DNA from: a virus
Direction: 5' to 3' (one strand)
Virus genome (UHGV): UHGV-0278008
DNA length: 19,628 nucleotides
Shown: positions 864 to 16,149 of the stretch, piece after piece
Numbering within the stretch: position 1 is the first letter of the stretch
Layout of the letters: each line of letters starts with the position of its first letter
Notes under the pieces: model-generated
What the model was told of the DNA's origin: nothing
The model's database searches: none
The model's input: only the letters and a program-made list of their open reading frames with translations
Position numbers and translations under genes: made by a program

Positions 864-2801
864 TCATGCCGCGGCGTCCGCGTTATTCACTTCCACCGTA
901 ATGCTGTCTATCAGTACCGGGTAAGTCGCACCTTTGGTAATGTCTGTCACATGCAGTTTATCCGCCGCAAAGGCACTGACCGGTGACTGCGTCAGCGTGA
1001 ACGGTGTACCATCCTGACCATCAATAACCGGCGTCACCTGAAGGCTGTTATTCCCGGCAAAGCGGAAAGCCAGCGTATGCCATTCGTTATCAAATGCGCC
1101 AAAGCTTCCCAGTTTCAGGTTGTTTGTCGCCACTTTCGCATTGTGGTACATCACATTCAGGTCTTTTGCATCTGTCTGGATGTAGAACGCTGCCAGCAGG
1201 TTATTCCCCCCGTCTCCGGTCAGGGCAACGCCCTGTGGCAGTGAAGATACCGGCCAGTAAAACGCCATAACATACTGGTTCGCAGCCAGCGCTCCCGAAG
1301 CCTTAAAGCGGCAGCGAATCTGCCCCCCTTTCTGTAACAGAGCCGCACCGTTGCCTGCAGCGTACTCCAGCACCCAGCTGCTTTTACCGGCTTCCTTGGT
1401 CACCTTCACAGCCTTACCTCCGGTTCCCTCCGCATCGCTGACCACTTCTGCCCTGCCGCCACTGGCTGACCATCCCTGTACTTTCAGGCTTCCCTCTGAC
1501 TCGCTGGCAAGGTAAGAGAGCAGTGTTGTGACGCCTGTGACTTCTGCACCGGAAGGCGATGACGGACGCACCTCTGATACTGTCGATGATGCCCCCGCGT
1601 TTAGCGCCACTCTTCCCGCATGGCGCAGAATCGCCGTTGCCAGACGGTCGGAAATAATCCCCCGGCGTGCCCAGGTGCTGAAATGGCTCGCCCTGTCCTG
1701 TGACGTCCAGGTGGCTGAGCTGTCACGCCATTTCGAACCGTAATACCCGATACCCGGAATGTCCGGGTCTTCTTCCGGTTTGTTCGTCGGCACATTCACC
1801 CCGTTCTCATCCGTCATGAACGGTACGAAATGGATATTCTTTTCCGTTTTGTTTTTATAGCTGCCGTACACCGTCTGGTACGTGGATTCGTTCTTCTGCT
1901 TCCAGAAATACGTCGCGTCCCCGCATATCCAGGGAACACCACCAGCAGAGCCACCGACGCACTGGCCTGCCATATCCGCCAGGTCTGCACGGAATTTATC
2001 AACCAGCGCACCAAACTGTGCTGCGTGATTTCCGGGCGTGCCGTCAAAATCAAATTCCCCCTGCATCCACACCACGGCAAACAGCACATTTTTCGGGTTC
2101 CTCTTCAGTGCTGCTTTTGTTCGACCGATAAGGTCCTTATACAGCGGCTTGTCCACACCCCAGCGCGCTGAATTCTCCGAGGCACCGCCAGCGTCACTGT
2201 ATGTGCCATCAGCTCCGGTGGTGAACGCGGAACCACCACGACAGCACGGAACCAGCAGAATACCCGCATTCGCCGGTATAAACGGCAGCAGTTTTTTGGC
2301 GATATGCAGCCCCTGCCCCACGGTTCCGTACTGCCCCTTTGACAGGTCCGCTTTCGGATGGTTAAGACGGCTCATGTCCTGCACATCATGCAGACAATGG
2401 TCCGCCGGAATGATGTCGTTATATTTACAGGCGACACCGCCCGGTGTCACCGTACTGCGGCGCGCCAACTGCTTAATACGCGGGTCCGGACGGTCATATG
2501 TCTCCGGCAGCGGAAGACCTTCACCATACGACATGCCATTTGACTGCCCTGCCAGAACCACAACAAAGTAATACTCCGGGTCGCTGGTGGCACTGACAGC
2601 CACCGCCTTACCCTCATTACCGGTCACCGCCACTGGTGTGGTGACATCACCTTCCGCCGCAATGGCCTGCATCAGGGTATAAGGCGTGATGGCCACCGGA
2701 CTGCCAAATGGCTGCCAGCCCTCCTTCAGTTTTTGTGTCAGTCGTTCAGCAAGGTCTGACGGCGATGCCGCCCTGACCACATCGTAGTGTTTAAATGTCA
2801 T
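864..2801 (-). CDS. nanS-p: Prophage sialate O-acetylesterase NanS-p type (N-terminal DUF1737-like region plus SGNH/SASA esterase), 645 aa
   Basis: ATG with GGAGG SD; N-terminus MTFKHYDVVRAASPSDLAERL... and GQSN esterase motif (VVLAGQSNGMSYGEG); size and position (downstream of the stx slot, upstream of S) as in Stx-phage nanS-p, from memory. Confidence 0.8.
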   Translation of the reverse strand: MTFKHYDVVRAASPSDLAERLTQKLKEGWQPFGSPVAITPYTLMQAIAAEGDVTTPVAVTGNEGKAVAVSATSDPEYYFVVVLAGQSNGMSYGEGLPLPETYDRPDPRIKQLARRSTVTPGGVACKYNDIIPADHCLHDVQDMSRLNHPKADLSKGQYGTVGQGLHIAKKLLPFIPANAGILLVPCCRGGSAFTTGADGTYSDAGGASENSARWGVDKPLYKDLIGRTKAALKRNPKNVLFAVVWMQGEFDFDGTPGNHAAQFGALVDKFRADLADMAGQCVGGSAGGVPWICGDATYFWKQKNESTYQTVYGSYKNKTEKNIHFVPFMTDENGVNVPTNKPEEDPDIPGIGYYGSKWRDSSATWTSQDRASHFSTWARRGIISDRLATAILRHAGRVALNAGASSTVSEVRPSSPSGAEVTGVTTLLSYLASESEGSLKVQGWSASGGRAEVVSDAEGTGGKAVKVTKEAGKSSWVLEYAAGNGAALLQKGGQIRCRFKASGALAANQYVMAFYWPVSSLPQGVALTGDGGNNLLAAFYIQTDAKDLNVMYHNAKVATNNLKLGSFGAFDNEWHTLAFRFAGNNSLQVTPVIDGQDGTPFTLTQSPVSAFAADKLHVTDITKGATYPVLIDSITVEVNNADAAA

Positions 2802-3024: not shown

Positions 3025-3030
3025 GCCCAT

Positions 3031-3055
3031 AAAAAAAGCCCCTCCGGAGAGGGGC
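3031..3055 (-). terminator. Intrinsic terminator, minus strand (end of TerB-like transcription unit)
   Basis: gcccctc/gaggggc stem with 4-nt loop; A7 on plus strand = U-run on minus. Confidence 0.5.
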
Positions 3056-3305
3056 TGACGCTGCGTATCTGTATCATCATGCGCATGGTGCCGGGTGCCT
3101 CCCGGTGAGTTCAGTCCGGTGTCCCTGAACCCGCGTATCTCGATCCAGGTTGTCGTCAGAGATGACACCTTATACACCAGTCGCCCCTCCGCACAGGGGG
3201 ATTCACCATGCGAAATTTTTTTAACAAATGCTCAGTCTGACAGGCAACTGTCAACTGACTGAATTGTGAGACATTTAAAATTTTCGGGGCATGACTGATA
3301 CCCGG

Positions 3306-4068: not shown

Positions 4069-4145
4069 GGCGCGTTGTACTGGATTCGAACCAGTGACCG
4101 ATTGCTTAGAAGGCAATTGCTCTGTCCGGCTGAGCTAACAACGCA
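4069..4145 (-). tRNA. tRNA-Arg, anticodon UCU, CCA encoded
   Basis: Hand-folded cloverleaf: acceptor gcgttgt/acaacgc, D-arm gctc/gagc, anticodon loop cttCTaa, T-loop ttcgaat. Confidence 0.8.
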
Positions 4146-4158
4146 GTGTACCGATAAT

Positions 4159-4235
4159 GGACCGCCATCGAGGACTCGAACCCCGCGCAACCAGCTTCGA
4201 AGGCTGGCGCTCTGTCCCGATGAGCTAATGGCGGT
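4159..4235 (-). tRNA. tRNA-Arg, anticodon UCG, CCA encoded
   Basis: Acceptor ccgccat/atggcgg, anticodon loop ctTCGaa, T-arm cgggg-ttcgagt-cctcg. Confidence 0.75.
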
Positions 4236-4244
4236 ATGTGATAT

Positions 4245-4320
4245 GGTGGCCCTTGCTGGATTTGAACCAGCGACCTGGCGATTATGAGTCGCTCGCTCTC
4301 ACCACTGAGCTAAAGGGCCG
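4245..4320 (-). tRNA. tRNA with anticodon CAU (Ile2-type or Met), CCA encoded
   Basis: Acceptor ggccctt/aagggcc, D-arm gctc-agtggtga-gagc, anticodon loop ctCATaa, T-loop GGTTCAAATCC; same order as ileZ-argN-argO of Stx phages. Confidence 0.8.
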
Positions 4321-8415: not shown

Positions 8416-8571
8416 TTACTTCTCAGATTCGTAGTCTACGAAGACAGCAACCTCCGTCTGGCCGGTTCGGATTCGTACCTCGCAGAGGTCTTTCCTCGTT
8501 ACCAGTGCCGTCACTATGACGGTTAAACAGATGACGATCAGGGCGATTAACATCGCCTTTTGCTGCTTCAT
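8416..8571 (-). CDS. hok: Hok/Gef-family type I toxin (51 aa)
   Basis: MKQQKAMLIALIVICLTVIVTALVTRKDLCEVRIRTGQTEVAVF... is near-identical in pattern to HokD/HokC. Confidence 0.85.
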   Translation of the reverse strand: MKQQKAMLIALIVICLTVIVTALVTRKDLCEVRIRTGQTEVAVFVDYESEK

Positions 8572-8628
8572 AGTCTGCTTCTCCTTGACCTTTCGGTCCG
8601 TAAGAGGCAATCTATATGTGACGAGCAT
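8416..8628 (-). CDS. Mok-like in-frame N-terminally extended reading frame over hok (70 aa)
   Basis: ATG at 8628..8626 with GTGAGG SD; MLVTYRLPLTDRKVKEKQTM- extension resembles recalled MokC N-terminus. Confidence 0.45.
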   Translation of the reverse strand: MLVTYRLPLTDRKVKEKQTMKQQKAMLIALIVICLTVIVTALVTRKDLCEVRIRTGQTEVAVFVDYESEK

Positions 8629-8671
8629 ATAGGGGCCTCACTTCGATTTATAGTCGGGTGGGGCTTTTATC
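8600..8671 (+). ncRNA. Candidate Sok-like antisense RNA; 5' end not determined
   Basis: Plus-strand hairpin gcctcac (8634-8640) / gtggggc (8660-8666) plus U-run 8667-8670, antisense to the mok SD/start; TTGACC at 8585-8590 is a possible -35. Confidence 0.35.
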
Positions 8672-8816
8672 TATCTGCCGTTGGTGTTCATGCCCGAGGC
8701 AGATAGCCTCAAGCACCCGCAGCAATTTTACAAAAACAAACTATTATTTTCTATGTCCTTTCACTTGTCTCATTTCTGACTATACTGATCGCTCACACAA
8801 CACAAAAGGTATAAAA

Positions 8817-8990
8817 ATGACCGTTCATGGTATATCGGAAAACAGTACTGTTCACTTACGTGAAAAAAATGGAGAATGGCTTGTAATGCAAATTATTAGA
8901 AACGAAGATATTACATATCAACTCCGAAATACAGATACAGACGAAGAAGTAATCGCCACGCTTCAGGACATTATCTCCCCAAATAAATAA
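8817..8990 (+). CDS. Hypothetical small protein (57 aa), AT-rich, opposite strand to neighbours
   Basis: ATG at 8817 with AAAGG SD and TATACT -10-like hexamer upstream; MTVHGISENSTVHLREKNGEWLVMQIIRNEDITYQLRNTDTDEEVIATLQDIISPNK. Confidence 0.5.
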   Translation: MTVHGISENSTVHLREKNGEWLVMQIIRNEDITYQLRNTDTDEEVIATLQDIISPNK

Positions 8991-9112
8991 TCAAATCAGC
9001 GGGGCGCACAATACCCCGCACTATTCCACTTATCATCCCCAGCGGCAAATCGAATACACCACCAGCGCCACCGCCATTGCAATTCCTACCGTTATGAACG
9101 CTTCAGGCCAGG

Positions 9113-9457
9113 TCATCGTAAAATATCCTCCTCGCTTATCAGTCCGTTTCGCTTCAGGTAGTCCATCGCTTTATCCGGTAATTTACAGTCCGGCTTCGCT
9201 TTCCTCAGTTGCCAGGTTAACTGCTTTACCAGCATGCTTAACTCGTCGACCAGACGCTGATATCCCACTGGTTTGTATTCATGCAATTTACCGACTGGCT
9301 CTGCTGCCAGCAATGCCAGTGCGATTTCCAGAACAGCAATATCCATCTTATATGTGCGGATGATATCATGGTCGATTGTGCCCGGTATGCACAGTCTCTG
9401 TGCTTCAATAGTCTCCTCTGCGTGAGCTATTAACTGCTCTCTGGTAAAAGTGGTCAT
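9113..9457 (-). CDS. Hypothetical nin-region protein (114 aa)
   Basis: ATG overlapping upstream stop (ATGA); N-terminus shares pattern with the 9971..10396 product. Confidence 0.6.
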
Positions 9458-14492: not shown

Positions 14493-14912
14493 ATGGTTCA
14501 TGAAGATAAAGCGCGTAAAGAGTTCGCCAGTAGGCTTGCGCTAGCCTGTGAAAACGCTGGTTATGAACAACATGGAAGGCAGGCAGAAATTGCCCGTCGA
14601 ATGAAATTAACACCAAAAGCGGTTAGCAAATGGTTTAATGGCGAAACAATTCCTCGCCGGGAGAAATTAAGGGAATTAGCAACACTAATAGGAACAACAC
14701 CAACCTATCTTTTGGGAGAGGATACAGAAGAAAGTGGACAGGTACGTTTCTATCAGGAGTTAAATCCAAGACAAAAAATCATCATTGACCTTCTGGACGA
14801 ACTCCCTGACAGTGAGACAGATGAACTTTTAAAAACTCTTGAAGAGAAAAAACAGAAGTACAATGCAATTTACGAAGAGTTAGCACGAAAGAAAAAACAA
14901 AAAGCCTCTTAA
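14493..14912 (+). CDS. DicA/RacR-like HTH (XRE) prophage repressor, 139 aa
   Basis: HTH RQAEIARRMKLTPKAVSKWFNGE; C-terminal LLDELPDSE...EEL region resembles DicA; weak SD. Confidence 0.75.
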   Translation: MVHEDKARKEFASRLALACENAGYEQHGRQAEIARRMKLTPKAVSKWFNGETIPRREKLRELATLIGTTPTYLLGEDTEESGQVRFYQELNPRQKIIIDLLDELPDSETDELLKTLEEKKQKYNAIYEELARKKKQKAS

Positions 14913-14984
14913 ACCAGCATAAATCCGGTAGCGCCTTCCTCCGGGTTTGTGCTTCACTTTATCCCATCTCATTTTTTTTACACA

Positions 14985-15035
14985 CAAAATGTACTAAAAG
15001 TACTTTACAGCAATGAACAAAAAGTACATTATATA
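14985..15035. promoter_or_regulatory. OL-like operator/promoter region upstream of early-left operon
   Basis: Three further copies of the AGTACAT/ATGTACT half-site (14989-14995, 14999-15005, 15023-15029) around TTTACA and -10-like hexamers. Confidence 0.45.
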
Positions 15036-15204
15036 CCTACCACCCGCCCCACAGAATGCAGGGCAATACTTCGAGTTACCCGGCAGTGGTCAGGGGTTAA
15101 GTAGCCAGCCCGAGGCGTATGAACATGACGGCGGGAACACTTTGTATAACAGCGCAGCAGGTTTTTAGTTCCGCGACCCGGCGTTAAGGGTAAATGAGGT
15201 CAAC

Positions 15205-15608: not shown

Positions 15609-15666
15609 CCATGTGTAGTCTTTGGTGGCATCAGTTCTACTCCGTGACTGCTCTGCCACCCTTTTT
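15609..15666 (+). ncRNA. dicF: DicF-like sRNA (3' two-thirds conserved, including terminator)
   Basis: GGTGGCATCAGTTCTACTCCGTGACTGCTCTGCCACCC+TTTTT closely matches recalled DicF 3' region GGCGGUAUCAGUUUUACUCCGUGACUGCUCUGCCGCCCUUUUU; 5' boundary uncertain. Confidence 0.6.
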
Positions 15667-16149
15667 AAAGTGAATTTTGTGATGCGGTGAATGCGGCTAA
15701 GCGCACGCGGAACAGTTAAAACAAGCGGTCTTTTACTGGCGTAACAGACATCAACTAACAATCCGGCGTTAATTGTTAACTGGTTAACGTCACCTGGAGG
15801 CACCAGGCACTGCATCAACAAAGTTCACTTCGGTGATGAAGGGTAAGAGAAAATGTTGAATGTAGCTATTGAAAACCAGAATGGGTGGAATTATAGTGCA
15901 CCTGCACCTCATAAAGCGGGTGCCGGGCGTGGAAACCCGATGATGACTACTGCGCATAACCGCGCTCAGGCGGTTTTTTTATGCGTAATGCACAGCCACA
16001 TTCAGATTATGGTGGGGCGTGCAGGGCAGCCGAAAGGCTGGCCGGTTTCGGTAGTCACCGGTATTTCCACCCCTGTACGTCTCACCACCCTTATGGTCGT
16101 GGAAAGCCTTGGTGGTGAGTTATTTAAACTGACTATCGAGGCTGCCATC

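Follow-up and report, generated by a model that had tools for sequence, protein, structure and literature searches.

We found that a 57-codon open reading frame (ORF57) in the virus genome UHGV-0278008 is very probably a genuine protein-coding gene. Comparison of its alleles points to a new, unannotated protein family, an orphan restricted to Escherichia, within a well-known kind of element: the ORF lies on a short AT-rich cassette whose sequence supports its assignment as a phage moron and fits the known pattern. The window, by which we mean the whole 19,628-nucleotide stretch analysed here, matches a Rac/Qin-type lambdoid prophage of E. coli CP55_Sichuan (NZ_CP053731) with 99.98% identity across 18 kb. 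Its early-right operon is on the minus strand and runs leftward through genes for a cro-like HTH protein, a YdaT-like protein and replication, then DUF1627, DUF977 and DUF4406 genes, small nin-type genes, hok, DUF968, RusA, DUF1133, tRNAs and lysis genes. An earlier note on this DNA had described ORF57 as a plus-strand gene in minus-strand surroundings, and its neighbours are indeed on the minus strand (Table 1).

Relative to NZ_CP053731, the window contains one extra C at position 1592; the gene in which it falls is listed in that record as a DUF6645 pseudogene with a frameshift, and may therefore be intact in the source of the window. Rfam matches at gathering score in the window comprise the STnc100 sRNA, three tRNAs, DicF, isrK and a C4 antisense RNA (coordinates listed for these matches: 3025–3240 (–), 4071–4319 (–), 15610–15661 (+), 15904–15980 (+) and 16005–16092 (+)).

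Table 1. Features of the hok–ORF57 region, in window coordinates
Feature	Position	Strand	Details
hok/sok type I toxin-antitoxin locus	8416..8718	–	hok CDS 8416–8571; in-frame upstream ATG 8628; outside the cassette
Putative Sok promoter TTAACA-16-CATAGT	8547..8574	+	promoter scan
hok promoter	8725..8753	–	-10 TAAAAT (8730..8725) from the backbone; -35 TAGAAA (8753..8748) from the cassette; promoter scan
Putative moron cassette	8732..9029	+	AT-rich 5' region with -10, 57-aa ORF, GC hairpin
Putative ORF57 -10 hexamer TATACT	8781..8786	+	CTATACT invariant in all alleles; presumed promoter function
Shine-Dalgarno AAGG	8806..8809	+	7 nt upstream of the ATG; read directly from the sequence
ORF57 CDS	8817..8990	+	57 aa, 6.6 kDa, pI 4.67, net charge ~–5; stop TAA 8988–8990
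GC hairpin GCGGGG-N9-CCCCGC	8999..9019		between ORF57 and the convergent 27-aa ORF; –11.9 kcal/mol
27-aa hydrophobic ORF	9033..9116	–	convergent with ORF57; right-hand backbone neighbour in both genomic contexts

Insertion site and control elements of the cassette

We defined the cassette boundaries by alignment with a cassette-less prophage (L006) and with the copies in perC context (L017 and L150). The left boundary falls after AATT[C/T]TAC and the right boundary before TTATCATCCCCAGCGG. In the L006 alignment, homology ends right after the hok -10 hexamer and restarts at TTATCATCCCCAGCGG, just before the stop codon of the 27-aa ORF; the same slot measures ~30 nt in L006 versus 298 nt in the window. 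GC content of the cassette segment (8732–9030) is 0.368, versus 0.512 in the left flank, 0.481 in the right flank and 0.502 in the whole window, and the segment is the most AT-rich 300 bp of the sequence (lowest 0.3% of all 300-nt windows). This windowed calculation confirmed the marked AT-richness claimed earlier for positions 8690–8990, an interval that also includes the 5' end of the hok mRNA and the hok promoter. A second markedly AT-rich patch (GC 0.36–0.38) occurs at ~14720–15040 and covers the 3' end of a cI-like HTH gene and the spacer beyond it.

Of 5426 complete E. coli genomes, 10 contain the full 391-nt region, and 19 gave some version of the ORF in a sensitive search. The first 92 nt of this region, which represent the hok leader, occur in 2999 complete E. 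coli genomes, 10 of which carry the full insert. Among 115 IMG/VR loci with the hok leader, only one has the cassette; in most of them, as in L006, a small hydrophobic ORF lies within ~30 nt of the hok -10.

L017 and L150 carry the same cassette, with the same left boundary, in a second context, the distal end of their PL operon, where the gene order is cIII, kil, Rad52-like, SSB, Abc2, DUF5405, DUF2737, small hydrophobic ORF, ORF56 (+) and PerC (–). This copy of the ORF is divergent from the accessory gene PerC, as ORF57 is from hok in the window. In loci of the L018 type (L018–L021 and L147, from E. coli C5 and 8 further complete genomes), the ORF adjoins a decayed hok: the leader, mok/sok region and promoter are deleted, the start codon has become ATA and the third codon is TAG. 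In these loci, both the ORF and its -10 remain intact. PGAP annotates a 45-aa Hok/Gef protein in the L018 type despite the dead hok and leaves the intact ORF56 cassette beside it unannotated. From these alignments, we interpret the cassette as a presence/absence (insertion) polymorphism of deviant composition that moves between genomic contexts independently of hok.

In lambdoid prophages, cargo is recurrently inserted 5' of hok, as far as the promoter spacer. Some IMG/VR loci (L129, L045, L057 and L106) carry other low-GC cargo 5' of the hok -10, namely a 208–265-aa Peptidase_C13/caspase-like protein, a 153-aa multi-pass membrane protein and a 108-aa membrane protein, all of which may act in defence. 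L005 (E. coli strain 48), itself a carrier of the cassette, has a further accessory module next to hok: a RelE/ParE toxin and HTH antitoxin pair lies at 1952–2633 (+), 3' of hok and in convergent orientation. The 27-aa hydrophobic ORF that borders the cassette on the right is unannotated, and its ATG overlaps the stop of a 114-aa gene (9113–9457). Many prophages that lack the cassette conserve this ORF next to the hok promoter, and in the PL operon of L017 and L150 it is the right-hand neighbour of the cassette. The family matches of the ORF are weak (phrog_4612 at 0.009, KdpF at 0.03), and it is possibly a real small membrane protein.

On the left, the cassette reaches into the control region of hok. 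The toxin gene is identified by Pfam HOK_GEF (1e–22), and the Rfam hok leader/sok model (RF01794) matches 8569–8718 (–) with 104.6 bits, which puts the 5' end of the hok mRNA at 8718. The hok -10 lies 7 nt upstream of this end, and the cassette junction is inside the promoter spacer. Cassette-less phages have TTTGCG at the hok -35 position (read off the sequences) versus TAGAAA in the window; since the cassette TAGAAA replaces TTTGCG as the -35, hok expression may differ between the two states. Because of the position of the junction, the promoters of ORF57 and hok are back to back, and the two transcripts should not overlap, given their predicted starts at ~8793 (ORF57) and 8718 (hok).

The Shine-Dalgarno sequence and TATACT element that the earlier note had placed before a 57-aa ORF were both recovered. 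A purine-rich SD-like motif stands at constant spacing from the ATG in all ORF57 alleles. The invariance of the -10 extends to alleles that are 56–65% identical in protein, and even to L018 and L149, which are otherwise diverged upstream. The candidate -35 (CTTTCA, 8758–8763) matches the consensus at 3 of 6 positions and is not conserved in L018. A consensus sigma-70 scan called no plus-strand promoter in the cassette, because the best -35 reaches only ~3/6. In the L018 and perC contexts, the cassette is the only possible source of a promoter for the ORF. An internal minus-strand promoter-like site (8921..8892, 10/12 matches) was rejected as unconserved in the alignment of the other alleles. 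An Rfam scan of the cassette yielded no RNA family, only a weak echo of the sok model on the plus strand (16.7 bits).

ORF57 and the 27-aa ORF do converge across a GC hairpin, previously placed at 9001–9023. The hairpin is located 9 nt past the ORF57 stop (z –3.1 on the plus strand), and prophages that lack the cassette lack the hairpin as well. Read on the minus strand, the hairpin continues into TGATTTGATTATTTATTT (UGAUUUGAUUAUUUAUUU tail) and was called terminator-like, whereas the U-tract of the window allele on the plus strand is poor. Hairpins after the ORF stop are found in three lineages and have three unrelated sequences; the one in L149 is followed by TTATTGTT, a good T-run. As judged from these tails, the hairpin of the window looks like a better intrinsic terminator for the minus strand than for the plus strand. 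It is a probable bidirectional terminator, and it would probably also shield hok from early-operon read-through.

Coding evidence and predicted product of ORF57

The length of ORF57 (translation MTVHGISENSTVHLREKNGEWLVMQIIRNEDITYQLRNTDTDEEVIATLQDIISPNK, MTVHGISENS...SPNK) is within chance: a complete ATG-initiated ORF of at least 57 aa arises in 7.8% of dinucleotide shuffles of the cassette. The reality of the gene therefore rests on comparative evidence, for which we drew DNA copies of the family from complete genomes, IMG/VR contigs, metagenomes and Logan assemblies. The frame is kept, down to 56% protein identity, in all sequenced alleles except one (P0062), which has a frameshift in an A-run. 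Across eight representative alleles spanning the same range of identity, the ATG, the SD-like motif and the stop position are conserved, and indels inside the ORF are of –3, +6 and –3 nt. The sole 2-nt deletion in the ORF falls four codons from its end and runs into an overlapping TAA. Unlike the ORF interior, the 85-nt region upstream has 1- and 2-nt indels. A 110-aa upstream-extended frame (8658–8990; 98-aa proteins in some databases) was rejected because the extension is unconserved, being broken by 1–2-nt indels and absent in L018.

The gene is conserved in its substitution pattern as well. For deep allele pairs, dN/dS is 0.18–0.45 (P-value down to 1.7e–5), with an omega of 0.26 for the window versus L149 (dS 1.09, dN 0.28, Fisher P-value 2e–4) and of 0.18 for L018 versus L149 (P-value 1.7e–5), which indicates purifying selection on ORF57. 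Omega is ~1 between the window clade and the L004/L005 clade, which may reflect either relaxed or diversifying evolution. A stop-codon survival simulation (0.28–0.57 per lineage) is not our main evidence, since it is weakly discriminating. Codons 12–22 (window 8850–8882; GTT CAC TTA CGT GAA AAA AAT GGA GAA TGG CTT) are near-invariant in nucleotide sequence, synonymous sites included, across alleles that otherwise differ by 15–30%, in a sample of few sequences. Clustered at 90% identity, the proteins of the family fall into 15 groups, every one of them from Escherichia, and a metagenome scan added no further lineage. PGAP leaves the ORF unannotated in 13 of the 19 complete genomes that carry it.

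The predicted protein is acidic and hydrophilic, with no signal or membrane segment and no DNA-binding motif. Profile searches of Pfam, PHROG and NCBIfam gave no credible family; matches to BcsE (E 0.097) and, for L018 only, to phrog_37909 (E 0.009) were discarded as noise. No match at E ≤ 1 was obtained with tblastn in 50,697 INPHARED phage records or 72,556 PLSDB plasmids. An exhaustive phmmer search of 1.84e9 representative proteins returned the family itself and otherwise no true relative. Its matches to polyubiquitin, fibronectin and cadherin repeat proteins were attributed to repeat-summed chance by inspection and a shuffle test, and the single match in a genome-contig scan (an Acidobacteriota MAG, L007; 52% identity over 23 residues) was treated as spurious. 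Identity to a characterised small protein, which the earlier note had considered, did not emerge from Pfam, PHROGs, NCBIfam or the 1.8e9 proteins, and a literature search for the ORF57 peptide, its accessions and PDC-M49 found nothing. Five of the ten family members match positions 8–57 of the 135-position profile (PDLC04683) of PDC-M49B, a candidate defence protein in PADLOC, with sub-threshold and partial scores (best E 0.003, 13–15 bits), and we treat this match as a weak lead only.

AlphaFold2 runs on two alignments gave the same small barrel of 4–5 strands (pLDDT 73.4 and 76.7), a model of moderate confidence built on a shallow alignment. We predict an SH3/Tudor-like small beta-barrel. 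Stand-alone barrels of this kind (SMN Tudor, the UvrD/PcrA C-terminal Tudor, NusG/Spt5 KOW and R67 DHFR) are 6–17% identical to ORF57, with no family-level sequence match; the likeness is one of predicted fold and implies no shared ligand. Because none of the family, protein, phage and plasmid collections searched yielded a homologue of known function, the functional reading draws only on fold, charge and context. A generic binding-module fold combined with acidic charge would favour protein binding over nucleic-acid binding or catalysis, and we infer that ORF57 neither catalyses a reaction nor binds DNA nor serves as an antitoxin.

The moron reading and a possible role

Morons are defined as extra DNA of deviant GC content with its own promoter and terminator (PMC3594210). 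A promoter of its own and an orientation antisense to the lytic genes are typical of an accessory locus (PMC7067206), and orientation against the early operons together with an own promoter is typical of prophage-expressed genes (PMC7067206, PMC3594210). The earlier suggestion of a laterally acquired moron holds for the extra DNA, which separates genes that are adjacent in related phages (L006 and most of the 115 IMG/VR loci) and is absent from most hok-bearing relatives, for the deviant composition and for the second context beside perC. It may also hold for the control elements, which are predicted and conserved: the -10 is invariant and a lineage-specific hairpin follows the stop in three lineages, but the -35 is weak, the scan made no call, and the window allele has a good U-tract on the minus strand only.

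The cassette shares extra DNA, deviant GC, promoter-like and terminator-like elements, and orientation independent of the phage operon with the lambdoid morons HK97 gene 15 and lambda bor, lom and rexAB (Juhala/Hendrix, PMC3594210). However, the ORF57 protein is unrelated to any characterised moron product, and the cassette promoter is weak by consensus. Expression of STMMW_20121 in the Salmonella prophage ST64B is supported by RNA-seq (PMC7067206), whereas that of ORF57 is a prediction from sequence.

We regard a cassette-and-gene model as the best explanation of these observations, with somewhat better than even confidence. A self-contained accessory cassette (8732–~9029) would have been inserted in the hok promoter spacer of a Rac/Qin-type lambdoid prophage. 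Transcription would run rightward, against the phage early operon, probably from a weak sigma-70 promoter with the conserved TATACT -10; the GC hairpin would terminate this transcript and probably also keeps leftward transcription from running on into hok. The product would be a 57-residue acidic cytoplasmic protein, selectively maintained and predicted to form a stand-alone SH3/Tudor-like barrel. It may be expressed from the repressed prophage and may act as a small module that binds a protein of the host or of an incoming phage, with lysogenic conversion, exclusion or counter-defence as the resulting role, as for other small morons. At a guess, ORF57 would be an accessory factor that is expressed in the lysogen and binds a protein.

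Small genes that prophages transcribe from a dedicated promoter have time and again proved to function in exclusion, defence, anti-defence or modulation of the host, and annotation overlooks most of them. A role of ORF57 in phage conflict is a tentative proposal, and one we lean against. A bolder reading is unlikely: ORF57 would be the founder of an undescribed family of stand-alone SH3/Tudor-like mini-proteins confined to Escherichia. Its mobile cassette of promoter, ORF and terminator would target the accessory-gene hot spots of lambdoid prophages (the promoter of hok, or the PL operon at its perC end), and the protein would bind and block a specific protein in phage-phage or phage-host conflict. 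It would act in superinfection exclusion or counter-defence, possibly as a functional partner of the neighbouring hok/sok abortive-infection module.

Explanations other than a lysogen-expressed moron

We think it distinctly improbable that ORF57 is a counter-defence or host-takeover protein whose acidic barrel inhibits a host defence or enzyme during infection or induction. Profile searches detected no similarity to any known anti-defence protein, and in both contexts the ORF runs opposite to the early operons behind a -10 of its own, the pattern of prophage-expressed genes (PMC7067206, PMC3594210). What speaks for such a protein is that ORF57 is a small, acidic and narrowly distributed orphan with an omega of ~1 between two clades, that the slot at hok accepts variable cargo, and that the L017/L150 copy lies at the end of the PL operon near the host-takeover genes Abc2 (Anti-RecBCD_p2), Kil and CIII.

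Less probable again is an incidental ORF, with the insert serving as a terminator that insulates hok from early-operon read-through and as AT-rich promoter/UP sequence for hok. An ORF length within chance, a hairpin that is the better terminator for the minus strand, a hok -35 supplied by the cassette and the frequent disregard of the ORF by PGAP would agree with this explanation. However, it leaves out the significant purifying selection on the frame, the restriction of indels within the ORF to in-frame ones, the conserved ATG and SD, and a predicted fold that is reproducible across two alignments. The cassette is also retained where hok is absent or dead, and cassette-less prophages need no such insulator.

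The earlier note had also compared the position of ORF57 with that of relBE beside hokD in Qin and had raised an antitoxin-like factor. In K-12 Qin, ydfU, rem, hokD, relE and relB lie in this order on one strand, followed by ydfV and flxA on the opposite strand, and relBE is integrated into the hok leader (PMC6379469). Qin and the window share the backbone of DUF968/ydfU, a rem-like gene and hok, with accessory genes 5' of hok; some of those in Qin are on the opposite strand, as is ORF57 (PMC6379469). The comparison with RelBE is positional only: relB-relE-hokD are co-directional, whereas ORF57 is divergent from a hok that retains its leader and Sok region, and ydfV and flxA are the better positional analogues of ORF57. 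ORF57 has no sequence relation to RelB, RelE, YdfV or FlxA. Insertion in Qin cost hokD its leader; in the window, the leader and Sok region of hok are intact and the junction lies in the promoter spacer.

A Hok-linked regulator or antitoxin-like factor consequently finds little room, and we give it a very low probability, even though most copies adjoin hok divergently with promoters back to back and relBE in Qin integrated on the 5' side of hok (PMC6379469). The hok of the window retains a complete RNA-antitoxin architecture, and the RF01794 leader/sok model ends at 8718, outside the cassette. The same hok leader occurs in ~3000 genomes without the ORF, and the ORF persists without hok beside perC (L017/L150) or next to an inactivated hok (L018–L021). 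ORF57 is monocistronic and matches no antitoxin family in Pfam or NCBIfam; its predicted fold is an SH3-like barrel rather than RHH, HTH or AbrB, and the protein is acidic and lacks a DNA-binding motif. Since hok/sok is complete without the ORF in ~3000 genomes and ORF57 survives without hok, ORF57 appears, on these comparisons, to be neither a hok antitoxin nor a hok component.

Polyubiquitins are the top non-family matches of ORF57 (phmmer, 1.84e9 proteins). Residues 4–51 (window 8826–8969) align at 31% identity to ubiquitin 59–76 and the next ubiquitin 1–32, across a unit junction. A single junction scores 23 bits (E 3e–4 for di-ubiquitin in a PDB-only profile search), and the pairwise Gumbel P-value is ~5e–6. 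The very low E-values arise because identical repeats are summed, and by our own rescaling of the PDB E-value to a 1.8e9-protein library the score of a single junction would have an E of ~3. We judged the similarity to be most probably chance. Capture of a eukaryotic polyubiquitin gene fragment spanning a unit junction is scarcely credible despite this alignment, as the similarity spans two units and weakens in divergent family members, Pfam gives no ubiquitin match (PF00240), the predicted fold is SH3-like rather than beta-grasp, and a junction fragment would be unable to form the ubiquitin fold.

Overall, we favour a lysogen-expressed accessory gene on a moron cassette, and the analysis removes the antitoxin speculation for ORF57. 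The cassette offers a clean, testable example of ~300 bp with mapped junctions and natural plus/minus prophages, and alleles are available beside live, dead and absent hok. ORF57 is in this sense a useful experimental handle rather than a surprising gene. If it blocked a phage or a defence system, it would bring a new minimal fold into that repertoire; otherwise it would be an ordinary orphan moron.
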